A DNA stretch of 51,134 bases from a virus (taxonomy: Duplodnaviria; Heunggongvirae; Uroviricota; Caudoviricetes): the IMG/VR virus record IMGVR_UViG_2724679172_000007; one strand, 5' to 3'. Shown here in pieces: positions 1-40,127 of this stretch. Position 1 is the first letter of the stretch. Every line of letters begins with the position of its first letter. The position numbers and the translations under genes were made by a program. The notes beneath the pieces are model-generated. The model was not told the origin of the DNA, made no database searches, and saw only the letters and a program-made list of their open reading frames with translations.

Positions 1-604
1 CGTTAGCCAGGTCATATGCAGCCTTGACAGCTTTCGGTGTAGCCGCTTTTCTTTCTTCTGTACTGCTTATTTCATTAGAGAATTCGACACCAACAGCCCG
101 GTTAACCCGGTATTTAAGCACAATCATTTCTTTAGTCACAGCCGTTGCGCCGCTAGGCACGATAACTCGACATAATTCAATTTGATTCTGCCCAATAGTA
201 TTGTCCGTACGCGCGTAAATTCTTGCAGCACTGACAGAAGATGCGCTATCTACCTGTGTCGTTTTTACACCATGTTCAAAATTGGCTTCCAGCACAATAA
301 TGTTGGTAGCCCCTGCCTTTACCGAGACAGTCACATCTTCTATTTGCTGAACGGATATCTGAACATTATTTACATCTACTGAAGCAGCCCCTTTACCTTC
401 TGAGTTTTCAGAAGTTATGCGGACACTCAACCCTGTGCCGGGAACCGGTTCAAATCCACAGTAAAAGCCAGGCAAAACAATATTTTTTAGTTTTCTGTTA
501 AGAGCCAGACTACTATAGAGTTCGAAATATTGAACATCAGCAAGCAACGACTGTGAGACACCAGAGGATAGTGTCATTATGTTGTTCGTTTTATCAGCCC
601 CCAT
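1..604 (-). CDS. Phage tail fibre protein, N-terminal part (5' partial; continues beyond window start)
   Basis: Minus-strand ORF starts at ATG 602-604 (overlapping the stop of the upstream gene) and runs off the window with no stop; the translation contains an ATPKAVKAAYD-type segment; position directly after the baseplate genes matches tail-fibre placement in P1/P2/Mu-like clusters. Confidence 0.4.
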   Translation of the reverse strand, partial: MGADKTNNIMTLSSGVSQSLLADVQYFELYSSLALNRKLKNIVLPGFYCGFEPVPGTGLSVRITSENSEGKGAASVDVNNVQISVQQIEDVTVSVKAGATNIIVLEANFEHGVKTTQVDSASSVSAARIYARTDNTIGQNQIELCRVIVPSGATAVTKEMIVLKYRVNRAVGVEFSNEISSTEERKAATPKAVKAAYDLAN

Positions 605-606
605 AA

Positions 607-2003: not shown

Positions 2004-3434
2004 TTACGGGTAAGAAATGCTGAACGTTGAAGATTTTACGTTAAGATAAATGAAGTCATTAAAGTAAACAGCATCTTTCATATTTTGTATTGTTATGTCG
2101 TAAGACAGAAACATATCCAGAGACTCTATTACTCGCCAAATATCCTTAACTTTTACCTGTGCATAACATTGCTGGGAATCATCATCACTCTGTAGTAATA
2201 AACTGAATGATGACGAATCACGGCCAAAATTATCTTCCAACGCTGCTTTAATAGCATTTTGAGCATCGTCTATCAGAACATTTTTACGTGCAATACCTAT
2301 AAAATTTATAGTAAATGGCTGTTCATTTGTATCTACATACTCGAACCGCTTGTTCAACTCATTTGGAACATTCTCTAGAGCTTTCAGTATTTCTGATTTT
2401 AGCTGAGACTGGCTTACACCCGGCTTATGTCCGCAAAAGAAAATTTTGTTGATGTTTCGAACGTCAAACCCAGTTATTTTCTCTTGTAACGCTTCGCCCC
2501 AAACGTTCAACCATGAAGTTCCATGAACAACATTCTGAATGAATTGGCGATAATCACCGCCCCATACCACTTGTTCATCGTATGCAACATAATACTGAGC
2601 ACGATTTCGAGTTTCTTCTGTAGTTTCCATACCACTACCACCGGTAATGATCGAATCAGTTTTAAACTCTAGTGACTCCACATATTGAGCGATATTTCCA
2701 GCCGGTTCTAACTTTTGTCCTTCAGCCAAAGTATAGTCGCCAAGGCTAGCCATAACATCGATTCGAACCTGACAGCCTGCTGGAGGCATCATACCCATAG
2801 AACCATCACCAAACTTGACTCCAAGTTGTTCTGTAGGTTTATATGCCAATGAATAGTGCTTACTCTTGTCTCTGGACATTCTAAATAATGGGTTATATGT
2901 CCATTTTTCTTCTACTCCATCTGTAATAACATAAACATCCAGGCTAGAGACTTCTTTTGTTAACTCTCTGGAAAGCAACAATGTCAGAAATAAAGTTTCC
3001 TTCTCAATATCAAACGTAATGCTAACAGCTTCATGCTGTTTAGTTTCTACGCCAGAAACAGTTCCTCCAGCAGGAATTACAACACTGTTAATAATTGCCA
3101 AAGGTGTTTGGTCATTGGCAAGCAATTCAGCCCCGGCTGGTAACGTAATATCCCGATCAGTTTTATTGGTTATAGACGTTGTTCCGTATGAAGCACTAAC
3201 AAATCGCCCTACGTAGCTACGGTCTTCAGCAACCGCTAAAATACTTGAGCGGCGCGTTGCCGTTGAAATAAGTCCCTCAGTGAGGCCGCGACTTGCAAAT
3301 GTACGGGCAATATAAATAAGCTGCGATCCGAATATAGCGTGCATCTGCACAAACTGACTATTTACAAATCGTGACCACCATGTATTTTCATTTAACTTGG
3401 CGTTAAATTTGTCCAGTAATTCTGTAATCGTCAC
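2004..3434 (-). CDS. Baseplate J-like protein
   Basis: 476-aa ORF whose start overlaps the stop of the upstream W-like gene (translational coupling); size and position match the baseplate J/gp6 family. Confidence 0.5.
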   Translation of the reverse strand: MTITELLDKFNAKLNENTWWSRFVNSQFVQMHAIFGSQLIYIARTFASRGLTEGLISTATRRSSILAVAEDRSYVGRFVSASYGTTSITNKTDRDITLPAGAELLANDQTPLAIINSVVIPAGGTVSGVETKQHEAVSITFDIEKETLFLTLLLSRELTKEVSSLDVYVITDGVEEKWTYNPLFRMSRDKSKHYSLAYKPTEQLGVKFGDGSMGMMPPAGCQVRIDVMASLGDYTLAEGQKLEPAGNIAQYVESLEFKTDSIITGGSGMETTEETRNRAQYYVAYDEQVVWGGDYRQFIQNVVHGTSWLNVWGEALQEKITGFDVRNINKIFFCGHKPGVSQSQLKSEILKALENVPNELNKRFEYVDTNEQPFTINFIGIARKNVLIDDAQNAIKAALEDNFGRDSSSFSLLLQSDDDSQQCYAQVKVKDIWRVIESLDMFLSYDITIQNMKDAVYFNDFIYLNVKSSTFSISYP

Positions 3435-3805
3435 GCGCCCACCCCACTTGATTTCTGCATAACAATATCCATGCTCCCACCTTTCGCATAAAAACTAATT
3501 AATAAAGAATCTTCAGAAATTGATGTGCAACGAATCCCTTGCACATCCAAACCTGGCAAGTCTTGTCGTAGTTTTTTCATCATTCTCCCTTCAATAGCCA
3601 CTTCAACTATGTGCGAAGTTTCAGAGCCGAATGGTTCATGCTTAAATTCTTCCATTGGACTCCCCCAAGAGGGTAAACCATAAACACTCCCTTCAGGGGT
3701 TCGTAGCCACTCGTCAAGTCGGGCCATCCATGCTGCGGTACTTCCTTCTGCAATAATGACACCGCTCTCATTCGTTTGAAGTCTTGCGTCTATTTCGTAA
3801 AGCAT
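3431..3805 (-). CDS. Baseplate wedge protein (GPW/gp25-like)
   Basis: 124-aa ORF directly after the tape-measure-like gene and before the J-like gene; size and residue pattern resemble GPW/gp25 proteins. Confidence 0.45.
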   Translation of the reverse strand: MLYEIDARLQTNESGVIIAEGSTAAWMARLDEWLRTPEGSVYGLPSWGSPMEEFKHEPFGSETSHIVEVAIEGRMMKKLRQDLPGLDVQGIRCTSISEDSLLISFYAKGGSMDIVMQKSSGVGA

Positions 3806-3810
3806 CAGTA

Positions 3811-6800
3811 TTAATCCTCAAGCAGAGCATCCAGCGACTGGTCATTAATAGTTGTGCTCGCACGTGGTCGCGGCTGCGGCTGCGATGTTTTGACAACATT
3901 ATCCGGATCGCCTTTTGTATTGTTCTTGTTCACATTCAGCAGATCGTTCAGGATAGAGCAGATGTTATCCAGCGCCTTCAACATAGCAGGATCGTTATTT
4001 ATAGTGTCAGTAGTTAATGGTTGTCTTATTCCGCTTCGTGCGAGATCGGTTACAGTAGGGAGTTGTGGCGGCATAGCAAGAAAAGGTTCTTGCACAGCTG
4101 AAGCAGAGCCAAATATGGCGTTATTGGCACCAGTTGCTATTCCCCTAATGCTATTAGCGGTTTGTTGAATCCCCCCATTCAGCCAGTCTCCAACATTTCT
4201 TGTTAATGGGCTAATAGCTCGCGCAATCGCACTATTCTGCCCAGTAGACTGCATTACAAGATCGTTCAATATCCCTGTACTATCAATCCCCCCAACAAGT
4301 CGTGAAAGGTTATCGCCAACGGCAGGAATTACTGCGGTTCCTGTCTGTTTAAGCCCTGACACCGTGGAATCAAATAGCGAACCAAAGAAGCTCTTATCCT
4401 CACCTGTAACCACCTTGTAGCCGTTGTCATAAATCTGCACATCACTTGGTGCCGTGATAGTTCGTTTTCCAGAGGTAACTACTGGCGCAGCTCCCGCCAT
4501 AGCCTGGTTGATTGCCAGAGCCTGCTCCTGCTGTGGAGTTTTCGGTGCTGGCGCTGCAGACGAAAAGCCCGCCATAGCCTGGCTGATTGCCAGAGCCTGC
4601 TCCTGCTGTGGGGTTTTCGGTGCTGGCGCTGCAGACGAAAAGCCCGCCATAGCCTGGCTGATTGCCAGAGCCTGCTCCTGCTGTGGGGTTTTCGGTGCTG
4701 GCGCTGCAGACGAAAAGCCCGCCATAGCCTGGCTGATTGCCAGAGCCTGCTCCTGCTGTGGGGTTTTCGGTGCTGGCGCTGCAGACGAAAAGCCCGCCAT
4801 AGCCTGGCTGATTGCCAGAGCCTGCTCCTGCTGTGGGGTTTTCGGTGCTGGCGCTGCAGACGAAAAGCCCGCCATAGCCTGGCTGATTGCCAGAGCCTGC
4901 TCCTGCTGTGGGGTTTTCGGTGCTGGCGCTGCAGACGAAAAGCCCGCCATAGCCTGGCTGATTGCCAGAGCCTGCTCCTGCTGTGGGGTTTTCGGTGCTG
5001 GCGCTGCAGACGAAAAGCCCGCCATAGCCTGGCTGATTGCCAGAGCCTGCTCCTGCTGTGGGGTTTTCGGTGCTGGCGCTGCAGACGAAAAGCCCGCCAT
5101 AGCCTGGCTGATTGCCAGAGCCTGCTCCTGCTGTGGGGTTTTCGGTGCTGGCGCTGCAGACGAAAAGCCCGCCATAGCCTGGCTGATTGCCAGAGCCTGC
5201 TCCTGCTGTGGGGTTTTCGGTGCTGGCGCTGCAGACGAAAAGCCCGCCATAGCCTGGCTGATTGCCAGAGCCTGCTCCTGCTGTGGAGTTTTCGGAGTAG
5301 AAGGGGATACTTGATCTCCCGGAAGTAGATCAATGATTTCTGTATCGTGATTAACAGTGCGTTTTTGTTGTATGGCTGTTGCGATATCAGCCACTTGAGA
5401 AGCTTTTTTAAATCCAAAAGATTTACCGGTTAAGCCGGATATCTTTTCAGTAAGAGCCTGATCCATTCCTTTCGCTTTTTCGGAAAGCGAAGATATAGAA
5501 CCAAACGAAGTAGCCAACGCAAAATCCTTTACCAGGTCCAGACTTGTTCCAGCAAGGCTGGTAGCCGCGCCGCCAAATAAATTACTTGCACCACTGATTC
5601 CGCTTTCATTTATTGCGATTAACCGCTCAAGCAAACTCGATGGAGAGCCGGTATTAACATCAGCGTTCTCTGGATTAATCGGTTGTGGTTGGTTACCTGT
5701 TTTTTGTGGCTTTTTGACTGCCTGGGCATGTTGTGCAACCTCAATTGGCTGTTGTGTTGCTGTCGGAACGGCATTCAAAACTGGTTGAGCTGGAGATTTT
5801 CCATTAGCATATTTTACCTTGCGACCAACACTATATTGCGAATCGCGGGCAATTAGCTGACCACCATTTTCTTTCTGAATTTTATTAATCCGCGCCAATG
5901 TTTCATCAGAGAATTGCCCCTCCCATCGACCAGTGTTTGTGTTAAATGCTCCAAGTGCGTTCTTAATGAACTCATTATTAACTGCCGGATTTCCGCCTTC
6001 TTTCGTCGCAATTGCACGAACTAATTGCGTCATAACCTCTGGTTTGCTGACATCTATTTTTTCATTAGGCGATACACCAAGATATTTACTGACGTTATCA
6101 ATATATTGGTTAGTATTGTTCTCATTTGGCGGTGCCCATTTTGAAATGATGCTGGATACCGTCTGTAACTTCTGATATCCCGCTGCGGCACTGGTGCCGT
6201 TGTAATAGCTGGAAACCTGGTTTGCCAGTGCCCTGATCCCTTCTTCAGGTGTGTTAAATCGCGCAAAACGTTGTTCACCTTTTGCATTTGGCGATTCCAG
6301 CGTCGCCCCTTCCTGGTTGGCAAAAACAAGATTGCCGAGATTATTATTTCGGTAATTGCGGTTTTTAGCGTTGCTGCCGCCAATATTCAGATCCGCTGCA
6401 ATGGTGTTGTTGGCAGGTGCACTAAATTCAGTTGGAGAAGTATACCCGTGCTCACCAACTCCATCCTCGCCATTACGCCCACCTTGTAATTGTTCACCTA
6501 GAGAATGAATCGCATCGACAGTTTTTTTGGTGCCGTCTTCAACAGCTTTTTTTACTTGTTTCGTGTTTTCGTCAGTGGATAAAAATGTATCCTTAAGGCT
6601 ACCAAAAACAGATTTGGTGATATCTACCGCGCCGTTAACACCACGAGCAATATCTCCGGTATCAAAATTCTGAAGTTTTTCACCTGCTCTTTCAAATCCT
6701 AGCGCAGAAATTCCTTTCCCTATCAAGTTCGTTGCGCCCGACACCAAGCCCCCCATATCGAGCACATTAGCTGTTGCGTAAGCCGTTTTTTGCTGTTCGG

Positions 6801-8391
6801 ATACAGCATCATCGTCACTTAATCCAAAGGCTGCCTTTTGCGCATCTGTATCAGTGTAACCATCTATAGCGTCATATCCCGCCATAGCCAGCGATCCGAT
6901 GATAGGGATAGCTCTTGCAGCTGTAGAAGCAGCTGATTTAACACCTATTTTTGCAGCACTTTTGAGGGCTACGGATTCGGTTTTTTTCTTTGCAACAGTT
7001 TCACCTGTTTTAACTGTGGCCTCTTCGGCAACAACACCTGCTGGCTTAACTGCCTTTGCTGTGTTTTTTGTTTCTTTAGCAATACCCTTAGATGCGTCGC
7101 TTGTGGTGCTGATGTCTTTGGCTTTACTAACCTTTGTTTTAACAGTCTTTGCAGCTCCAGCACCAGCTCCAGCAGCAGCGGTTCCGGCAGCGGCTTTTTC
7201 ACCAACAGAAAGGGCTTTTTTCCCCAGATTGCGACCTTTCCTTTTCGGTTTGTTCCGTTTATTTTTACCAGCCTGATCGCCAATATTGATTTTATTTCTT
7301 CTGCTTGCTCGATTTCTCCAGAGATCACTTAAGCCGAACTTATTCCCAGAAGATACTGATTTGCGTAGCTTAACTACTTCGTCGGAGACATTTTCCAGAC
7401 CATCAATTATTTTGTTGTCATTGGTCTGAAGAATTTTTGTTTGCTCTTCTACTGCTTGTGCTGATTTTGTCTCAACAGCATTATTAAATGCTGTTGCAGA
7501 GGTTGCTTTTTGAGTATTAACCACCGCCGGATAAGTGATAGCTGGAGATGTCGCTTTCGAAGGTGAAGCCTCACCTTTCCCCTTTTCTACCCATTCTTTA
7601 AGAGATTCTGCTTTACCTGTGATCTCTTTAGTAATGTCGTACATGCCGCGAGCAGCCATCCACAACGGACCACCAGCGCCAACACCTGCGGCATCTGTTA
7701 AAGACTCTTCACTGGAAGACTGATTGCCATCTACCCCTATAATGGAGCCTAATTTCCGGAGGAAGCCTTCTTGTAGTTTGGCGTCGGCCTTATGTGCTTT
7801 CTGCCATTCTTTTTTTCTGGCTATATCTTCGTTGTTTTTCTGGGATACAAAGCGTCCGTTACTATCCCGAAGCGGTCCTTTTTGGCTTTGGGGGGATTGT
7901 GGTTCAAGAGGAGCAGAATTAGCGGCTACTGGCACAGAACCTTTCAACTTTTGGGCTGACTGGCGTGATGACGCAAAATGAACGCGCTCTGATGTGTTGG
8001 TTGCAACAATGAGACGTTCTTCTCCGTTGTTGATCTGCGTCCTCCCTTTTTTCATCGGAAGGCGTTTTATATATGGGTTAGCTTGGGTGTTCTTGGCATC
8101 ATCAGAGACATAGGGTTCGCTTGCTATGAGTCTACGGGATAGTCTTTGACTTACTTTACCTTGATTTTCACCAAGTTGAGTTATAGACCCTCTACCAGAG
8201 AGAATGGCGTCTTTGATCTCAGCAAGAGCGTTAAGTTCGTTTGTGCTCGCCCCCTGAATAGCGTCAATTATTGCGATACGGTCTTTATTCTCTTTCAAAA
8301 TAACCTCTCTTTTGCCAGCGGCGATCAACGTTTCCCGGCTTGAGCTTTGTATTTTTCTTCCAGGGCTTTTGACATATGGAGTGCTCGCCAT
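3811..8391 (-). CDS. Tail tape-measure / structural injection protein (P1 Sit-like), with internal 25-aa tandem repeats
   Basis: 1526-aa ORF, Ala/Gly/Ser/Lys-rich and low-complexity; contains about 11 consecutive copies of KTPQQEQALAISQAMAGFSSAAPAP; followed by baseplate genes as in P1 (sit-pmgA-bplA-16-R-S). Confidence 0.6.
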   Translation of the reverse strand: MASTPYVKSPGRKIQSSSRETLIAAGKREVILKENKDRIAIIDAIQGASTNELNALAEIKDAILSGRGSITQLGENQGKVSQRLSRRLIASEPYVSDDAKNTQANPYIKRLPMKKGRTQINNGEERLIVATNTSERVHFASSRQSAQKLKGSVPVAANSAPLEPQSPQSQKGPLRDSNGRFVSQKNNEDIARKKEWQKAHKADAKLQEGFLRKLGSIIGVDGNQSSSEESLTDAAGVGAGGPLWMAARGMYDITKEITGKAESLKEWVEKGKGEASPSKATSPAITYPAVVNTQKATSATAFNNAVETKSAQAVEEQTKILQTNDNKIIDGLENVSDEVVKLRKSVSSGNKFGLSDLWRNRASRRNKINIGDQAGKNKRNKPKRKGRNLGKKALSVGEKAAAGTAAAGAGAGAAKTVKTKVSKAKDISTTSDASKGIAKETKNTAKAVKPAGVVAEEATVKTGETVAKKKTESVALKSAAKIGVKSAASTAARAIPIIGSLAMAGYDAIDGYTDTDAQKAAFGLSDDDAVSEQQKTAYATANVLDMGGLVSGATNLIGKGISALGFERAGEKLQNFDTGDIARGVNGAVDITKSVFGSLKDTFLSTDENTKQVKKAVEDGTKKTVDAIHSLGEQLQGGRNGEDGVGEHGYTSPTEFSAPANNTIAADLNIGGSNAKNRNYRNNNLGNLVFANQEGATLESPNAKGEQRFARFNTPEEGIRALANQVSSYYNGTSAAAGYQKLQTVSSIISKWAPPNENNTNQYIDNVSKYLGVSPNEKIDVSKPEVMTQLVRAIATKEGGNPAVNNEFIKNALGAFNTNTGRWEGQFSDETLARINKIQKENGGQLIARDSQYSVGRKVKYANGKSPAQPVLNAVPTATQQPIEVAQHAQAVKKPQKTGNQPQPINPENADVNTGSPSSLLERLIAINESGISGASNLFGGAATSLAGTSLDLVKDFALATSFGSISSLSEKAKGMDQALTEKISGLTGKSFGFKKASQVADIATAIQQKRTVNHDTEIIDLLPGDQVSPSTPKTPQQEQALAISQAMAGFSSAAPAPKTPQQEQALAISQAMAGFSSAAPAPKTPQQEQALAISQAMAGFSSAAPAPKTPQQEQALAISQAMAGFSSAAPAPKTPQQEQALAISQAMAGFSSAAPAPKTPQQEQALAISQAMAGFSSAAPAPKTPQQEQALAISQAMAGFSSAAPAPKTPQQEQALAISQAMAGFSSAAPAPKTPQQEQALAISQAMAGFSSAAPAPKTPQQEQALAISQAMAGFSSAAPAPKTPQQEQALAINQAMAGAAPVVTSGKRTITAPSDVQIYDNGYKVVTGEDKSFFGSLFDSTVSGLKQTGTAVIPAVGDNLSRLVGGIDSTGILNDLVMQSTGQNSAIARAISPLTRNVGDWLNGGIQQTANSIRGIATGANNAIFGSASAVQEPFLAMPPQLPTVTDLARSGIRQPLTTDTINNDPAMLKALDNICSILNDLLNVNKNNTKGDPDNVVKTSQPQPRPRASTTINDQSLDALLED
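4491..5295. repeat. Tandem direct repeat, 75-bp unit, about 10.7 copies, in-frame within the tape-measure-like gene
   Basis: Unit agcctggctgattgccagagcctgctcctgctgtggggttttcggtgctggcgctgcagacgaaaagcccgccat starts at 4501, 4576, 4651 ... 5251 (period 75); internal copies are identical, the first and last differ by 1-2 nt. Confidence 0.95.
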
Positions 8392-8445: not shown

Positions 8446-9267
8446 TTAATAATGGTTAGCCATCCATTCAGATCTAATTGATGGGATAAACTCTCTATTG
8501 AGAAAGGGGACGTACAGTGTGGTTGTCACATCTGCACCCTCCTTAGCGTTTTTGCAATGTTGCGGAGGCAGGATCAGTCGGCTTGAGCCTCTCTCAATAG
8601 ACATTTTCAGGCCGTGGCGTAGGTCTTTTTGCATAAGCTGTATGCGAGCCACAAGCGGGGTAAATTCGGTTTCAAGCGCCATGCTTTCAATGATGTCAAA
8701 GCGTCGGTTAGCGGCCTGCGTGAAGTCCTCCGGATCGTCTTCAAGCGCCGTGCATAAAGCGAGTTCAGCAATTCGCATCCGTGCTACGCCAGCACTGTAT
8801 TCGGGAGTTTTCATATCAGGAAGTGACGCTCGCATTCGTTCAAGGAGTTCCGCGCCTTTCCCGGTTAATGGTTTAAGTATCCAGTCAGTTGGTACTCCAT
8901 TTACTGGTACGTTGGTTTTCACGTAAGGAGGTACAGTGAGTATTTCTACTGTTTGGGCCAGGTCGCTCAGGTTAATATCTGCATGATGCGTATTACCGCA
9001 GTGACTGCACTCATAGGAGTAGGTCATTACTGCATCGGGGCGCGAATTAACAAATATCCACCAAAGAGCAGTTCTGCGGTCCTGAACTGTCCAGTTAGCA
9101 CTGTCGTTAATTTCACCATCCTGCATAGAGTTAAGGTACTCTGTAGTCGTTGCCTCATCTTCTGCCGGGTTCAGGTCAGAATATTTCAGCGCATCCTTCA
9201 CGGTAGGGGCGTGGAACTGAATTTCTGTCTCAGGATGGGAAGGCAATGGGAATTTTGGAATGTTCAA
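8446..9267 (-). CDS. Phage morphogenesis protein (hypothetical; Cys/His cluster CSHCGNTHH)
   Basis: 273-aa ORF immediately upstream of the tape-measure-like gene on the same strand. Confidence 0.4.
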   Translation of the reverse strand: MNIPKFPLPSHPETEIQFHAPTVKDALKYSDLNPAEDEATTTEYLNSMQDGEINDSANWTVQDRRTALWWIFVNSRPDAVMTYSYECSHCGNTHHADINLSDLAQTVEILTVPPYVKTNVPVNGVPTDWILKPLTGKGAELLERMRASLPDMKTPEYSAGVARMRIAELALCTALEDDPEDFTQAANRRFDIIESMALETEFTPLVARIQLMQKDLRHGLKMSIERGSSRLILPPQHCKNAKEGADVTTTLYVPFLNREFIPSIRSEWMANHY

Positions 9268-9374: not shown

Positions 9375-9630
9375 AGGGTGATTTTTACACCTTAAGTGAC
9401 GCTACTCACATATCCACAGAGTATTTTTATAAACCTTTTTCCATTTTTAATCCTTTTTAGATCCTTTTTAGGCGTCGCTGGAGCCAGTAGTGGCGCGGGC
9501 TGTAGAGGAGGCTGGTGTAAGATTTGCCCTCAATTAAATACGATCGGTGTAAGATTTGCCCTCAGAAGGTGTAAGATTTGCCCTCAAAAGGTGTAGTAAT
9601 TGCCCTCAAAGTGGTGTAAAAATTGCCCTC
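9375..9630. promoter_or_regulatory. Iteron-type replication origin region (incC-like): DnaA-box-like site, AT-rich stretch with GATC, five 19-bp direct iterons
   Basis: ATATCCACA at 9410-9418 (8/9 match to the DnaA box TTATCCACA); AT-rich 9421-9480; iterons GGTGTAAGATTTGCCCTCA at 9514, 9546, 9568, 9590 (variant) and 9612 (variant) on a 22-bp period, plus an inverted iteron-like copy near 9375-9391; immediately upstream of repA. Confidence 0.7.
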
Positions 9631-9655
9631 ACCATTTGAAGGATCACACAGGGTT

Positions 9656-10411
9656 ATGAACAGAGCGGAATTAACAGCAAAAGCCGTCAGCCTGATTGAG
9701 TCAGCGACACCTATTAGTCGTAGTCTGGCACAAGCCAATGAGATCACGGAGGCTGCTTATCACCTGACTCGCGACCAAAAGCGACTGTTGTTTATTGTGG
9801 TGGGAAGACTTCGCTATGCTTCTAAGGATGGCGTTCTTGGTTCAGGTGCCTGTGAGTTGACGGTCAACGAATATGCAGAGATGTATAATTTGCCCTCTGC
9901 TGAAGCCAGCAAGGATATTCGTAAGGCCATTTCAGGGCTTAGCGAGAAGAAAGTTACGATATATAACCCTGATGAATCGACCGAATCAGAAGACAGTTAT
10001 GAGTCTTATCCCTGGATGATTAAGGATGCCTATTCACCACGGCGCGGGACTTACATTATTCATCTTAATCCATATCTCATGCCGTTTTTTACTCTGCTTG
10101 ATAAGAGATTCACAAGGCTGAATTTTACCGAAGTATCTCGCCTTACAAATCCTTATTCTATGCGGCTTTATGAGTCCTTATGCCAGTACAGGAAGGATGA
10201 TGGAAGCGGCTTTGCCATACTTGGCGTCGAATGGATGCGGGAGCGTTATGGGTTACCAAAAAGCTATCAGCGGTATGCCGAATTTAAGAGAAGTTTTTTA
10301 ACGAAGGCTGTAGCAGAGATTGAAAAAAATACAAAAATGAAAATAGTCTTCTCAGAGGTGACGGAAGGCGGCAAAGTTACCAGGATAAAATTTACCTATC
10401 AGCAGTCTTAA
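9656..10411 (+). CDS. repA: Iteron-binding plasmid replication initiator RepA (Rep_3-like)
   Basis: ORF flanked on both sides by arrays of the same 19-bp iteron; start assigned to the ATG at 9656 just downstream of the last upstream iteron; architecture parallels P1 oriR (incC-repA-incA). Confidence 0.75.
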   Translation: MNRAELTAKAVSLIESATPISRSLAQANEITEAAYHLTRDQKRLLFIVVGRLRYASKDGVLGSGACELTVNEYAEMYNLPSAEASKDIRKAISGLSEKKVTIYNPDESTESEDSYESYPWMIKDAYSPRRGTYIIHLNPYLMPFFTLLDKRFTRLNFTEVSRLTNPYSMRLYESLCQYRKDDGSGFAILGVEWMRERYGLPKSYQRYAEFKRSFLTKAVAEIEKNTKMKIVFSEVTEGGKVTRIKFTYQQS

Positions 10412-23736: not shown

Positions 23737-25354
23737 ATGAGTGAGGCAGAAGCCCGCCCGACTAACTTTATTCGTCAGATCATCGATGAAGATCTGGCCA
23801 GTGGTAAGCACACCACAGTACATACCCGTTTCCCGCCGGAACCGAATGGCTATCTGCATATTGGTCATGCGAAATCTATCTGCCTGAACTTCGGGATCGC
23901 CCAGGACTATAAAGGCCAGTGCAACCTGCGTTTCGACGACACTAACCCGGTAAAAGAAGATATCGAGTACGTCGAGTCGATTAAAAACGACGTTGAATGG
24001 TTAGGTTTTCACTGGTCTGGCAACATCCGTTACTCCTCCGATTATTTTGACAAACTCCATGCCTATGCTGTTGAACTGATCAACAAAGGCCTGGCGTATG
24101 TTGACGAACTGACGCCGGAACAGATCCGCGAATACCGCGGCACCCTGACGCAGCCGGGTAAAAACAGCCCGTACCGCGACCGCAGCGTTGAAGAGAACCT
24201 GGCGCTGTTCGAAAAAATGCGTACCAAATTCACCGTTTATCGTGATGCGCGATCCGGTGCTGTACCGCATTAAGTTTGCTGAACATCACCAGACTGGCAA
24301 CAAGTGGTGCATCTACCCGATGTACGACTTCACCCACTGCATCAGCGATGCGCTGGAAGGTATTACGCACTCTCTGTGTACGCTTGAGTTCCAGGACAAC
24401 CGTCGTCTGTATGACTGGGTACTGGACAACATCACCATTCCTGTTCACCCGCGCCAGTACGAATTCTCGCGCCTGAATCTGGAATACACTGTGATGTCCA
24501 AGCGTAAGCTGAACCTGCTGGTGACCGACAAGCACGTTGAAGGCTGGGATGACCCGCGTATGCCGACCATTTCCGGTCTGCGTCGTCGTGGTTACACTGC
24601 GGCTTCTATTCGTGAGTTCTGCAAACGCATCGGCGTGACCAAGCAGGACAACACCATTGAAATGGCGTCGCTGGAATCCTGCATCCGTGAAGATCTCAAC
24701 GAAAACGCGCCGCGCGCAATGGCGGTTATCGATCCGGTGAAACTGGTTATCGAAAACTACCAGGGCGAAGGCGAAATGGTCACCATGCCGAACCATCCGA
24801 ACAAACCGGAAATGGGGAGCCGTCAGGTGCCGTTTAGCGGTGAGATTTGGATCGACCGCGCCGATTTCCGCGAAGAAGCTAACAAGCAGTACAAGCGTCT
24901 GGTGCTGGGTAAAGAAGTGCGTCTGCGTAATGCTTACGTCATTAAGGCAGAACGCGTGGAGAAAGATGCCGAAGGCAATATCACCACCATCTTCTGTACT
25001 TATGACGCCGACACCTTAAGCAAAGATCCGGCAGATGGTCGTAAAGTGAAAGGCGTTATTCACTGGGTGAGCGCGGCACATGCGCTGCCGGTTGAAATCC
25101 GCCTGTACGATCGTCTGTTCAGCGTGCCGAACCCTGGTGCTGCGGAAGATTTCCTGTCGGTGATTAACCCGGAATCGCTGGTGATCAAACAGGGCTTTGC
25201 TGAACCGTCTCTGAAAGACGCGGTAGCGGGTAAAGCATTCCAGTTTGAGCGTGAAGGTTATTTCTGCCTCGACAGCCGCCATTCTACGGCGGAAAAACCG
25301 GTATTTAACCGCACCGTTGGGCTGCGTGATACCTGGGCGAAAGTAGGCGAGTAA
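23737..25354 (+). pseudogene. glnS: Glutaminyl-tRNA synthetase gene (glnS) disrupted by an internal frameshifting indel
   Basis: The N-terminal ORF (23737..24273; HIGH motif in [12 protein letters not shown]) and the C-terminal ORF (24188..25354; VMSKR motif) are consecutive GlnS pieces in different frames; the frame breaks at 24223-24232, where 10 nt (accaaattca) replace roughly 57 nt of the wild-type sequence as recalled. Confidence 0.8.
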
Positions 25355-26329: not shown

Positions 26330-27002
26330 AGAGCACCCCCTTATTCGCTTCGAAAACTGCCTTTGCGAATCCATGTGGAGTAGCACTTCGAAAATTAGCC
26401 CTGTCAGGCCCTGGTGGCGCGGCATGGATTCTGTTATCTGGCTTGCCTAATGATTCGTCCATTAGGGCATCAGGCATGACAAAGCCCTGGCCGCTCCAGA
26501 GGCATGTTTTTTTGGTGTAGTTATCTTCCTGACAATATGCAGTGAAGAAGTAAGGGTGAAAGATGTGATCTGGCTTACGCCAGAATGTCGATATTTTGCT
26601 GACCGGATTTTCAATCATGTACGGACAACCGATCATCTTTGCAATGTCATAACACTGCCAGACAACCTGCATTGCTTTGAACTGGAAAACCGGATCTTTA
26701 TTAGCCTTGTCCGAAAACCAGCGCGCGCCGGAAACAGCCAGGTCAGTACACGGTGGGAACCCGGCCAGAAACACGATGCGCTGCAAATTCTTACGGAGAA
26801 AAGCGTATACTTCATCGCTATCGATGATCGCACTAATACGCGTCAGAACGGCACCTGATTGCATCCGCTCGTCACTGGTCGATAAGTGCTGTGGATCGAC
26901 GATAGCGGCATCGACACCGTATTCCAGCCAGGGGGCAACCATTGCCCCCGTAAAATCACAAAGACTCACAACAAGCGGTCGGTTATTATCGTTCTGCTTC
27001 AC
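26322..27002 (-). CDS. Putative DNA cytosine-5 methyltransferase-like protein (short, atypical)
   Basis: [12 protein letters not shown] resembles C5-MTase motif IV (GGPPCQxFSxAG) and IENP resembles motif VI (ENV); only about 226 aa, so the target-recognition domain seems absent; tightly coupled to dam. Start uncertain (GTG 27002 or upstream). Confidence 0.4.
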
Positions 27003-27891
27003 CGCCAATGGCCTCCACCAGCGCGTTAAACAGTGCAGATAATTCGCCCGTAAAGAGCACGAAATCAGCATCAAATCGTTGTGCTACATCCTCCCGGTCG
27101 ATATCGTCATTCTGGTCATAGAGATCATCACAGAATGTCAGGGCTTTGATACTCATATCATCGTTGACTCTGAACGACGCGCGTTCCATCCAGTTAATTG
27201 CAACGGTCGTAGCTACTTTCCCCGCCTCAATGTGAGACATAATCTCGTCGGACTGTAGATCAACTTTGTTGCAGCGAACGGCACCACCATTATCGAGCAG
27301 ACCCTTTAATGTGGCGTCTTCACCTGCTGTAAATCCGGCAGGGAAGCCGCTTTTAAACCACTCGGTCATTGTAATTTCCAGCGGTTCGCGTGGTGTGAAT
27401 GGAATGACAGGCAGGCTGCTGAGCGATTTTCGCAATAAAGCCAGCTGGTCCTCTGCCTTTTTGGCGCTGCTTGCCTCAACGAATACCAGATGGTTGCTGC
27501 GGTCGATCAGGATTTTGGCAAGTGATTTTCTCGTGAACGCGCGAGGCAAAAGTGAATGCAGGACTTCATCTTTAAGACTGTCTCTTTCCGTTTTCTTCAG
27601 CTTGCGGGCTTGCTCTTCTTCGAGTTTCAGGACTTTTTTCTGCAACTCTTCCTTGAGCACCTGCGAGGGGAGAATTTTTTCTTCTCGCTTATGCTGTATT
27701 AGCAGAAAACCCTGGTATTCATGGGTGAGGTTGTCACCAAGAACGGAGGTCCAACCAGCTTTAGCCATATCCTGAGAACCGCATGGGGTAAACACAAACT
27801 TGCTAAGGGCTGCATTTACTTCTGCAGTATCCCAGCTAACTTCGCGTGAAAGACGATAGATGAAGATATTTTTGAAAGCGACTGATCTCAT
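26986..27891 (-). CDS. rdgC: Recombination-associated protein RdgC
   Basis: 301 aa; segments [81 protein letters not shown] match E. coli RdgC as recalled. Confidence 0.8.
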
Positions 27892-27950: not shown

Positions 27951-28604
27951 CTATCCTTTCTTGAAATCGAAGTTGCCAGCAGTGGCCTGAAAGGTTCCTC
28001 CTGCCTTGAAAGCTATGTCTCCGTTAGCGGTGACAGCTATATTTTCCCCATTAACATTGATGTTGTTGGCTGATTTGACGTTAACACTCCCTCCTGCATT
28101 CACGATTACATCAGCCGGACCAATGATATATATCTGCCCGGACTCATTCATGCCAATCCTTGAGCCTGCTGCCGTATTGGCAATTTCATAGCCGCCACCA
28201 GCAGTTCGTACTTCAAGAATATTGTTGCGGTGAATAACGAAGTCTTTCGTTGCTGAGATTTGGGGGCGGGGAGGTGCTCCATCTACTTCCGGCGGCGTCC
28301 AGCCGTTGCCTTTGCCAGATGCTTCTGGTGCAACGTTTGGAATTCCTCCCGGTGCATCCTGAGCGGCACCAACTATCATTGGGCGTCTGGTGTCTATTCG
28401 ACCGTTAACATCTAAATAAGGAAACTCTACCCAGACCAGGTCACCTTTGACTGTGGGTACAAAAGCGTTTCCGATGGGTAACAGGTATTCCGCCCAGGGT
28501 AGATCGTCATCAGGAACGCCATTCCAGTCAGGTAAAACACGGACTTGAGCACGCATAAGCCCTGCCGGGTGCACAGTTCCAACAATTTGCGCTCTACGCT
28601 TCAT
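27951..28604 (-). CDS. Baseplate central spike protein (gpV-like)
   Basis: 217 aa; OB-fold-like N-terminal part and a C-terminal Gly/Asn/Val-rich beta-helix repeat (VNAGGSVNVKSANNINVNGENIAVTANGDIAFKAGG). Confidence 0.55.
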   Translation of the reverse strand: MKRRAQIVGTVHPAGLMRAQVRVLPDWNGVPDDDLPWAEYLLPIGNAFVPTVKGDLVWVEFPYLDVNGRIDTRRPMIVGAAQDAPGGIPNVAPEASGKGNGWTPPEVDGAPPRPQISATKDFVIHRNNILEVRTAGGGYEIANTAAGSRIGMNESGQIYIIGPADVIVNAGGSVNVKSANNINVNGENIAVTANGDIAFKAGGTFQATAGNFDFKKG

Positions 28605-29581
28605 TTGTTCGGCACTCCTAATATCATTCGTGTTGTGTAGCCTACGCGGTCCTCAAAGTGCGCAACATTTTTTACTATCAGCTTACGGGGCATTGATTCA
28701 TCAATGCGGTTTTCCTGGTCATAGCGGTATACGATAATCTCTATTACCATCCCCGGTTTTATATCAGGATTGCCTGCGACTTCTATATCCATTTTGGGGA
28801 CGAGAGACAGCTGCATATTGCGAAGAGTTTCCATATCAGAGTCGGATATATAACGCACTGGGAGTGAGCTATCGCCATACTCGACGTAGCCATCGGTCAT
28901 GGAATACCCAACAAAACGATATTGATTCTTTGCTGTTGTCGCATGTTCCTGTTGGAGTAGGCGCATTTTGGACAAAGTGTATTCTGCTTTAGGGTTATTC
29001 CCCTCGTAGGTAAATGATGGCGTTTGCTTCATCAGATCAGCCAGGGTGTAAAAGTTAAATTTCCCCCGGCATACCCAACATAATGCACCTTTGTCTCGCG
29101 CTATCTCCGAAAGCATTTTTGACGGTTTGCCACCGGCATTCAGATGATATGTAACTGCGCGTTTTAGCACGCTGCTGGTAATTTTAAGCTTGCCGGAATA
29201 TGCCTTGAATATAGCGTCTGGTGTTTTGTTGGTATGTAAATTTGTGCGCGGGGAGGGGATCTTAAACCTGCGCACGTCTTCACTGACAGCAATAACGGTA
29301 ACAACATCACCAGCCAGCATTGCAGACGTAACAAAGAAATCTGTTTTAAAAGTGCCTGCATTACCGTTTGGATCGCCCATTTCAGCCACCAGCGATGCAC
29401 CGTATTTGGCTTTCCAGTCATCAATTACGGTGCCGGTAGCGTCATGAATTTCCAGTTTTAGCAAAGGGGCTTTGAGGCTGGTTTTTTCTACATATACTGC
29501 GGTAAAAATCCAGTCTCGAGGCACTTTGTTATCGTTAATGAGCACTGACTGTAGAAAATATTGTTGTAACTCCTGGGCCAC
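28601..29581 (-). CDS. Baseplate hub-like protein (hypothetical)
   Basis: 326-aa ORF translationally coupled to the gpV-like gene. Confidence 0.35.
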   Translation of the reverse strand: MAQELQQYFLQSVLINDNKVPRDWIFTAVYVEKTSLKAPLLKLEIHDATGTVIDDWKAKYGASLVAEMGDPNGNAGTFKTDFFVTSAMLAGDVVTVIAVSEDVRRFKIPSPRTNLHTNKTPDAIFKAYSGKLKITSSVLKRAVTYHLNAGGKPSKMLSEIARDKGALCWVCRGKFNFYTLADLMKQTPSFTYEGNNPKAEYTLSKMRLLQQEHATTAKNQYRFVGYSMTDGYVEYGDSSLPVRYISDSDMETLRNMQLSLVPKMDIEVAGNPDIKPGMVIEIIVYRYDQENRIDESMPRKLIVKNVAHFEDRVGYTTRMILGVPNK

Positions 29582-39548: not shown

Positions 39549-40127
39549 TTAATTTATCAATTCAATCGCCATCTGATACAACGTCATTTCATCGGCATTG
39601 TGCCGCATGAAATCTGCTTTTCCGCCTATTTTTCCGTCAGCATGAACAGGGACCAGCCAGGGATATTGTTCTCGGACCTCGGCTGGCGCTGCGTACTGGT
39701 GGTGCCATTTACACAAAGGGAGGACATATTTATGCGCGTTCTCTGCCGTTCTCCCGAAGATATGGTGCAGGGATACCACTGGGCTATGTTGCCCGTGAAT
39801 ATGGCAGGCAATGCAGGGGAGAGCACCGATAGCGGTCTGTATCCGGCGTTCATCGGCTGTGAGTGATCTGCCTTTCAGGCCGCGTGACGTGCGTGTTTTT
39901 TTGGACGGAGCGGATACAGCTTTATCTTTTCTCCGCTGTTCATATTGCTTTGCTTTTTCATTTTTCTTTTGCCGATATTCAGGCGATGCGGCCTTTTCTC
40001 TCGCTCGCTGCTGCTGGCGTTGAGCTTGTTGAAGGCGCTTTGCCCTTTGTTCCTCTCGCCAGGCCGGGTCAGCCAATTTTTGCATGGCTTTTTGTCTCTG
40101 TTTCTCCCAATAACTCTGTTTCTGCAT
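39549..40127 (-). CDS. ref: HNH endonuclease with basic N-terminal region (P1 Ref-like recombination enhancement function)
   Basis: 192 aa; Lys/Arg/Gln-rich N-terminal half, then an HNH-like core (ALPCIACHIHGQHSPVVSLHHIFGRTAENAHKYVLPLCKWHHQ); flanked by operator-like sites. Confidence 0.5.
   Translation of the reverse strand: MQKQSYWEKQRQKAMQKLADPAWREEQRAKRLQQAQRQQQRAREKAASPEYRQKKNEKAKQYEQRRKDKAVSAPSKKTRTSRGLKGRSLTADERRIQTAIGALPCIACHIHGQHSPVVSLHHIFGRTAENAHKYVLPLCKWHHQYAAPAEVREQYPWLVPVHADGKIGGKADFMRHNADEMTLYQMAIELIN

Follow-up and report, generated by a model that had tools for sequence, protein, structure and literature searches.

What does a long run of DNA repeats, most of them identical to the letter, do inside the gene of a predicted tape-measure protein, and does their number matter for the tail? 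The question is raised by a 51,134-base-pair (bp) stretch of viral DNA (IMG/VR record IMGVR_UViG_2724679172_000007; hereafter the window) which, judged from its sequence, is part of a D6-like plasmid prophage, that is, of a contractile-tailed phage-plasmid distantly related to P1. Its largest open reading frame (ORF) is the following gene:

3811-8391, minus strand: sit-like gene, 1526 residues, homologue of D6 gp40 and P1 Sit ('tail injection transglycosylase'), from the ORF list, the D6 match and phrog_7182

Inside it lies an array of 75-bp units whose number varies among near-identical alleles of the gene. We propose that this array is a genuine coding minisatellite, an in-frame variable-number tandem repeat (VNTR), which a D6-like phage-plasmid carries in its sit gene, and that it has recently expanded in the window; our probability for this explanation is about 0.55.

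Tandem Repeats Finder (TRF) located a single strong array in the window, at 4493-5295, with a period of 75, 10.7 copies, 99% matches, no indels and a score of 1585. When the array is read in codon register, ten full units run from position 5292 down to 4543 on the minus (coding) strand, and a partial unit closes it:

4492-5292, minus strand: in-frame 75-bp minisatellite of ten full units plus a 51-nucleotide (nt) terminal partial unit, from the codon-register reading, the raw sequence and TRF
5218-5292, minus strand: unit 1, type A, with ACT at codon 2 (unit typing)
4543-5217, minus strand: units 2-10, type B, nine identical copies (unit typing)
4542-4492, minus strand: terminal partial unit (KTPQQEQALAINQAMAG), 51 nt, joining the unique sequence AAPVVTSGKRT

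Both TRF and the raw sequence thus agree with the original prediction, which had described about 10.7 near-identical 75-bp repeats in a tape-measure/injection gene, with identical internal copies and in-frame products of 25 residues. Units 2-10 are identical, and each full unit encodes KTPQQEQALAISQAMAGFSSAAPAP in frame with the 1526-residue ORF at 3811-8391. Unit 1 departs from the nine others by one synonymous base (ACT against ACC), while the partial unit has the ACT base of unit 1 and, in addition, an S-to-N change. Each base equals the one 75 positions further on at 674 positions, which makes 4538-5286 a block of 749 bp with perfect periodicity, something that chance cannot produce. The units are identical and head to tail, their length is a multiple of three and the ORF stays open through them, as in a coding minisatellite.

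Other signals over the array were discarded. Two further ORFs, at 4454-5314 (plus strand, 286 residues) and 4479-5417 (minus strand, other frame, 312 residues), were rejected as genes, since the unit is without a stop codon in those frames and both are stop-free by-products of the repeat. A terminator-like hairpin occurring once per unit on the antisense strand was likewise dismissed as a weak pattern match multiplied by the repeat, and no promoter-like signal stood above the shuffle expectation. An on/off phase-variation switch was rejected because 75 bp is 3 x 25 and the frame is kept at every copy number.

The gene was then followed among relatives, where it was matched in 111 plasmid records and in 97 of 5,426 complete Escherichia coli genomes, always plasmid-borne. 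The match spans step by 75 bp, and the 69 complete plasmid records with a repeat-type allele hold between 0 and 16 full units. In 23 cases the array was fetched and typed unit by unit, the other counts being taken from gene spans; clonally related records are tallied separately, and CP028585 was moved from 8 to 7 units by direct count, and AP019805, which has an equal gene span, was moved along with it. The records are distributed as follows:

Full units (records): 0 (3), 1 (4), 2 (7), 3 (11), 4 (10), 5 (10), 6 (5), 7 (about 5), 8 (about 5), 9 (4), 10 (2), 13 (1), 16 (2)

Across alleles with 0-10, 13 and 16 units the 5' 3,060 nt of the gene are 98.8-99.6% identical. The locus is therefore polymorphic in copy number, with near-identical alleles, fixed end units and internal reshuffling. 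The comparison among relatives that the original prediction had called for gave 0 to 16 copies, and not the equal counts with diverged copies that it had named as speaking against recent change. Whole plasmids differ in length by exact multiples of 75 bp (90446, 90296 and 89996; 89623 and 89248). More than 30 nucleotide unit types were distinguished, and the arrays that they compose are mosaics which share their ends and differ in the interior, as in CDEI, CDEEFGEI, CDEFGEHGEI and CDEGEFGEEFGEI, in JPQ against JfEGGJPQ, or in JGEGEFGGE against JGGEGEFGGEFGFGGE. Mosaics with fixed ends are the mark that unequal exchange or slippage leaves in a minisatellite. The first-unit variant of type A is common to the first units of several other arrays (types C and M), and the partial unit is kept even in CP066033, an allele free of full units. 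Isolates of independent origin can share one and the same array: CDEEFGEI was found in a Swiss human strain and in an Italian cat strain, and CDEI in Swiss and Egyptian strains under one protein accession, WP_224173539.1.

All fully typed arrays are in frame, with one exception. In CP058777, a Shigella flexneri plasmid, a frameshift follows the eighth unit and the gene is unannotated; either the assembly, which is long-read-only, has a sequencing error here, or the gene is a true pseudogene. The alleles nearest to the window, at 99.0% identity, are those of OY754373 (array 'B') and CP135715 (array 'CB'). The very recent expansion put forward in the original prediction fits this comparison, the closest alleles holding one or two units that include the same B type, and the others being mosaics.

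The same units are found, too, where the N-terminal part of the sit allele shows only 75-90% identity. A tblastn search with three units against 50,697 phage records gave no match, so that no sequenced phage isolate among them carries the unit. No unit is present in D6, in about 40 D6-type plasmids (Salmonella ones included) or in a more distant lineage, all of which have a short unrelated stretch instead; in D6 gp40, of 1260 residues, it is a diverged stretch of 30 residues at the array position. As a separate observation, the Sit cluster of P0004 at 90% identity comprises 877 distinct member sequences, whose lengths form two series with steps of 25 residues (1314/1339/1364 and 1326/1351) offset by 12 or 13 residues. 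Two alternative N-termini, MASTPYV... and MDISPL..., lie 12-13 residues apart in this cluster and may account for the offset.

The meaning of such an array depends on the protein that contains it. The sit-like gene is 88% identical in nucleotides to orf40 of phage D6 over 77% of its length, the unmatched part being the array, and orf40 is labelled 'putative tail injection transglycosylase, similar to P1 gene sit'. At the protein level the two flanks of the array are 86% and 74% identical to D6 gp40. The phrog_7182 profile (E=0, 2306 bits) aligns residues 32-1045 with profile positions 1-1023, and it also matches the C-terminal 224 residues at profile positions 1005-1228, so that the protein belongs to this family over its full length. 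These D6 and phrog_7182 matches support the earlier assignment as a tape-measure/injection protein, here of the Sit type and from a P1/D6-like phage-plasmid. The order of the tail and baseplate genes is the same as in D6 and P1 (pmgB - sit - pmgA - bplA - gene 16 - R - S); ORF sizes and order agree with D6 orf36-orf41 and place sit between pmgB and pmgA/bplA:

8446-9267, minus strand: pmgB-like gene, directly upstream (phrog_1854, D6 orf41)
3431-3805, minus strand: pmgA-like gene, directly downstream (D6 orf39, phrog_1896)

In P1, pmgB has been proposed as a tape-measure chaperone and pmgA as a baseplate wedge protein resembling T4 gp25 (PMC9024508). The same work found P1 Sit to be the sole virion protein long enough for a tape measure and reports its detection in virions by mass spectrometry (PMC9024508), while the cryo-electron microscopy paper on P1, in which the tail has 52 tube rings and 53 sheath rings, calls Sit the tape measure and leaves it unresolved in the structure (PMC12810830). 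By extension from P1 Sit, the protein of the window is a predicted tape-measure/injection protein. A different ORF, of 326 residues (28601-29581, minus strand), is homologous to a gene that the Prokaryotic Genome Annotation Pipeline names 'tail length tape measure protein' in related plasmids. Its P1 counterpart, gp6, has been reassigned to the baseplate hub (PMC9024508), and a protein of 326 residues is far too short for measuring a P1-type tail.

Three regions of the protein could be delimited around the array:

5944-6369, minus strand: muralytic domain, residues 675-816, of the Enc34-endolysin type (PHA02564 lysozyme fold), from PDB and phrog matches
6541-7002, minus strand: sole BLAST-level similarity to Sit of P1, P7 and SJ46, residues 464-617, about 42% identity (phrog_2533, phrog_24683, phrog_21630)
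3814-4491, minus strand: conserved C-terminal module, residues 1301-1526 (phrog_7182 profile positions 1005-1228)

The array is thus located C-terminal to the muralytic domain and N-terminal to the conserved C-terminal module. The muralytic domain matches PDB entries 7q47_A (E=1.5e-15) and 9vvp_L, Gp29 (E=3.9e-13), as well as phrog_873 and phrog_2276; 7Q47 is the unusual lysozyme-fold endolysin of Hafnia phage Enc34 (PMC8943055). An SLT-type lytic transglycosylase domain, such as that of P1 Sit, was looked for and rejected: Pfam returned no family at E<=0.1 on the whole protein, and the match to the Enc34 endolysin stands in its place. The name 'transglycosylase' in the databases is borrowed from P1 and is putative here. 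We note in passing that the 'Gp29' of 9VVP is a protein of 1295 residues whose N-terminus is homologous to the muralytic domain of D6-type Sit, and that matches to this domain occur as well in genomes the size of a podovirus's (about 40 kb), among them that of Providencia phage PSTCR3. The region similar to P1, P7 and SJ46 includes the hydrophobic segment AIPIIGSLAMAGYDAIDGY. For the C-terminal 216 residues the only match by tblastn among 50,697 phage records is D6; the module is specific to the D6 lineage and would form the baseplate-proximal end of the protein.

The array also stands apart from its flanks in composition and constraint. The unit has a G+C content of 62.7%, against 45.1% in the remainder of the gene. 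Compared with D6, the flanks have a ratio of nonsynonymous to synonymous substitution rates (dN/dS) of 0.16-0.2, with 0.18 for the C-terminal module, values that point to purifying selection. Of the sites that vary among the unit types, about ten are nonsynonymous and six synonymous, and the single Phe of the unit is swapped for Ile or Ser in some alleles; the substitution pattern indicates relaxed constraint on the units rather than diversifying selection. From its sequence each unit probably forms a three-turn amphipathic helix (with an A8-I11-M15-F18 stripe), followed by a Ser/Ala/Pro linker.

We propose that identical or near-identical units of 75 bp would allow misaligned pairing in replication or RecA-mediated unequal exchange, by which whole units are gained or lost, the frame being always kept and the two end units remaining fixed. 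Two units folded as single-stranded DNA are more stable than their shuffles (z = -3.1), a property that may favour slippage. Each unit adds 25 residues beyond the muralytic, central part of Sit and ahead of the conserved C-terminal module, at a position that tolerates from 0 to at least 16 units. The A unit and nine identical B units of the window would then most likely stem from a very recent expansion of a one- or two-unit allele. As for recombination functions of the element itself, a Ref-type RecA-dependent recombination-enhancement nuclease and an RdgC homologue are encoded at 39549-40127 and 26986-27891, both on the minus strand (PF16786, E=4.6e-35, and PF04381, E=2.3e-102, respectively); either could influence recombination between short repeats such as those of the sit array.

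With extra units the thread of protein in the tail tube would become longer, and so, probably, would the tail. An influence of unit number on tail length is a proposal by analogy, for which we rate the chances at a little under even. The length of the tape measure is the textbook determinant of tail length, on evidence from engineered mutants of a few phages. Deletions and duplications engineered in lambda gpH, T4 gp29 and the tape-measure protein (TMP) of TP901-1 change tail length proportionally, as does the removal of an embedded motif from the tape measure of TM4. If Sit is the tape measure, additional units would by the same reasoning lengthen the thread. The tube and sheath rings of a myovirus measure about 4 nm; 25 residues in alpha-helix would extend over 3.75 nm, near one such ring, and ten units could bring as many as about 10 further rings to the roughly 52 of a P1-type tail. 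In P1 itself 52 rings of about 4 nm give about 210 nm, against 171 nm for a fully helical Sit (1140 residues x 0.15 nm), and, the tail being longer than the helical protein, the whole chain probably spans the tube. This estimate of about 210 nm disagrees with the 120-nm P1 tail assumed in PMC9024508. Going further, unit number might act as a diversity generator, changing fast during plasmid replication, possibly within a few laboratory passages and with help from the element's own Ref nuclease, so that an induced population of lysogens would give virions differing in tape-measure length and with it in tail length and depth of penetration, as bet-hedging for envelope thickness; we regard this as improbable.

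The array could also be real and variable and still encode nothing more than a slack, disordered linker outside the ruler, the helical N-terminal part of Sit setting the length of the tail and copy number drifting while the gene is silent. We hold this to be a possible explanation, short of the favoured one, and several observations that weigh against an effect on tail length speak for it. In P1 Sit the ruler was argued to be the N-terminal ~750 helical residues (PMC9024508), in which case the array would lie outside it. The encoded segment is probably not a continuous helix: in an AlphaFold model of residues 901-1526 from the single sequence, helices are found on either side and mostly coil over the array, at a pLDDT (predicted local distance difference test) score of ~30 (mean 38), and in a model of a 1105-residue homologue with two units from a 30-row alignment (mean pLDDT 29) only one short helix, QQEQALAISQA, appears in one unit. 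Both models, which also show long helices in many flanking segments, are of unusable confidence, and the coil and short-helix readings are hints only. A slack spacer could fold back in the lumen, of which a trimeric thread fills only a fraction, and leave the length of the tail as it is. Copy numbers spread broadly between 0 and 16 in a roughly unimodal distribution that has no sharp optimum, which together with the relaxed constraint on the units, as against the low dN/dS of the flanks, suggests weak or no selection on length. Furthermore, D6 and about 40 relatives function or persist without any unit. However, the proportional response of tails to engineered changes in lambda gpH, T4 gp29, TP901-1 TMP and TM4 argues against a neutral linker, and so does the 52-ring tail of P1, which exceeds a fully helical Sit and implies that the whole chain is used. 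A selective explanation would be that the injected protein varies adaptively, under selection for the reach of its muralytic domain or conduit across different host envelopes or for escape from exclusion or defence proteins. Sit is ejected and carries a muralytic domain, and in other phages there are exclusion proteins that target tape measures (Ltp of TP-J34, gp15 of HK97). The D6-like prophages of Salmonella are reported to have their main divergence around simB (superinfection exclusion) and within sit (PMC6799933). Nevertheless nonsynonymous changes in the units are not enriched beyond relaxed constraint, and repeat number would be a blunt route to escape recognition, so we consider adaptive variation of this kind very unlikely.

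A doubt of another sort, compatible with any of these explanations, is that the array is real while the count of 10.7 and its homogeneity come from the resolution of a loop by a short-read assembler, which we judge unlikely, if by no means negligible. The window corresponds from end to end to LRPA01000031.1, a draft contig of GCA_001550005.1; it covers about 51 kb of a fragmented plasmid of ~90 kb and ends inside a tail-fibre gene; the periodic block of 749 bp is longer than short reads, and the copy number of such a contig cannot be verified from sequence alone. The exact 1526-residue protein is on record from this contig only, and its run of nine identical units, the longest among the 23 typed arrays (next longest, 4), has no match in complete plasmids. 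The risk of collapse or expansion in assembly, of which the original prediction had warned, is evident elsewhere too. Three 'partial' Sit proteins from other draft assemblies (P0129, P0130 and P0132, whose contigs measure about 19-20 kb) break off within the first or second unit, showing that the array breaks assemblies, and the 120 best cluster representatives of a large protein collection, which we assume to come mostly from draft assemblies, have a maximum of five full units against up to 16 in complete plasmids. Strain Ec-050 gave three counts: it was sequenced around serial subculture over 20 propagation steps with 0-9 chromosomal single-nucleotide variants (PMC11039899), and its plasmids at T0, T5 and T20, of 90,446, 90,296 and 89,996 bp, carry 10, 8 and 4 units, differences of exactly 150 and 450 bp. 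We had taken this as direct proof of change within five passages and have downgraded it to ambiguous, because an unrelated ST167 isolate from a cat has the 8-unit array in identical form, the 4-unit array recurs with an identical protein accession in an Egyptian isolate, and CDEI is the shortest path through the unit graph, as expected of an assembly that has collapsed. Recurrent recombination of the first E unit with the last would yield CDEI too, and from assemblies alone real instability and assembly differences are inseparable. Against an artefactual count, the contig may be of long-read origin, arrays of 10, 13 and 16 units occur in complete plasmids, and the variants of the first and last units stand at their expected places. 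The homogeneous series of A and nine B units suggests either that a one- or two-unit allele expanded very recently or that an assembler estimated the number; some true expansion is needed either way, since a loop in the assembly graph requires several truly identical consecutive B units.

Repeats in tape measures and coding VNTRs are, as a kind of feature, already known, and the comparison with known systems shows where the sit array agrees with them and where it departs. The closest is D6 gp40, which shares gene position, the full-length phrog_7182 match and 86-88% identity outside the array, and differs in its unit-free, diverged stretch of 30 residues. P1 Sit shares the gene position as well, but similarity by BLAST is limited to residues 464-617 and the muralytic domain here is Enc34-endolysin-like and not SLT. 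In lambda gpH, T4 gp29 and TP901-1 TMP, as here, tandem duplication in the tape-measure gene alters the length of the protein by fixed steps, and the literature ties changes of this sort to tail length. That tandem repeats contribute to the length of tape measures is recognised (PMC13585406, PMC8616913), and internal repeats of these proteins have been catalogued (Belcaid et al. 2011, cited in both papers). The catalogued repeats are old and diverged, with an 11-residue period and Trp/Phe markers in a helical ruler. The array of the window has a period of 25 residues, with a single, replaceable Phe in place of conserved Trp/Phe, is identical at the DNA level, is polymorphic among alleles less than 1.2% diverged, comes after the muralytic domain and lacks a predicted continuous helix. 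Like Sit, T5 Pb2 and the Tmp of mycobacteriophage TM4 combine a ruler and an ejected cell-wall hydrolase in one protein, a parallel drawn for P1 Sit in PMC9024508. Unlike the element studied here, T5 and TM4 are siphoviruses. We know of no hypervariable minisatellite in T5 Pb2 or TM4 Tmp. Outside phages, region Xr of Staphylococcus aureus protein A (the basis of spa typing) and the alpha C protein of group B streptococci show the same gain and loss of whole units, with the frame kept, typable mosaics and a Pro-rich, spacer-like product; those proteins are cellular and wall-spanning or antigenic, whereas the present one is a phage virion/injection protein encoded by a plasmid prophage. No account of this repeat was found in the searchable literature, whose coverage of key D6 papers was incomplete. 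What sets this case apart is the DNA-perfect identity of the copies, the population-level series from 0 to 16 on near-identical backgrounds, the position of the array past the muralytic domain in a spacer that is likely non-helical, and a host phage-plasmid that replicates for long periods with the gene silent.

The natural allelic series, which runs from 0 to 16 in 25-residue steps against backgrounds that are almost identical, in a phage-plasmid common in E. coli, Shigella and Salmonella, could reveal whether the ruler takes in an insert that is non-helical and close to the baseplate end. In practice, the array breaks or distorts short-read assemblies, and otherwise identical plasmids come to differ by multiples of 75 bp; the string of units serves in turn as a fine-scale typing marker for D6-like phage-plasmids.

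Some further features of the window deserve mention. It starts 606 nt into the tail-fibre gene S (1-606, minus strand), at a conserved ...AATPKAVKAAYDLAN motif, and the contig probably breaks there at sequence shared with other prophages or at an invertible segment. The plasmid-borne glutaminyl-tRNA synthetase gene glnS (23737-25354) is split into ORFs of 178 and 388 residues by a break at about 24222-24230, where a 47-bp deletion has a 12-bp replacement; glnS is intact, with 554 residues, in OY754373 and is reported in all D6-like genomes, and the split copy is either a pseudogene or an assembly error. Finally, 3.9 copies of a 22-bp repeat (GGTGTAAGAATTGCCCTCAAAA, 87% matches) at 9546-9631 lie immediately upstream of a RepB-like replication initiator ORF (9623-10411), whose start they overlap, and are presumably plasmid iterons.

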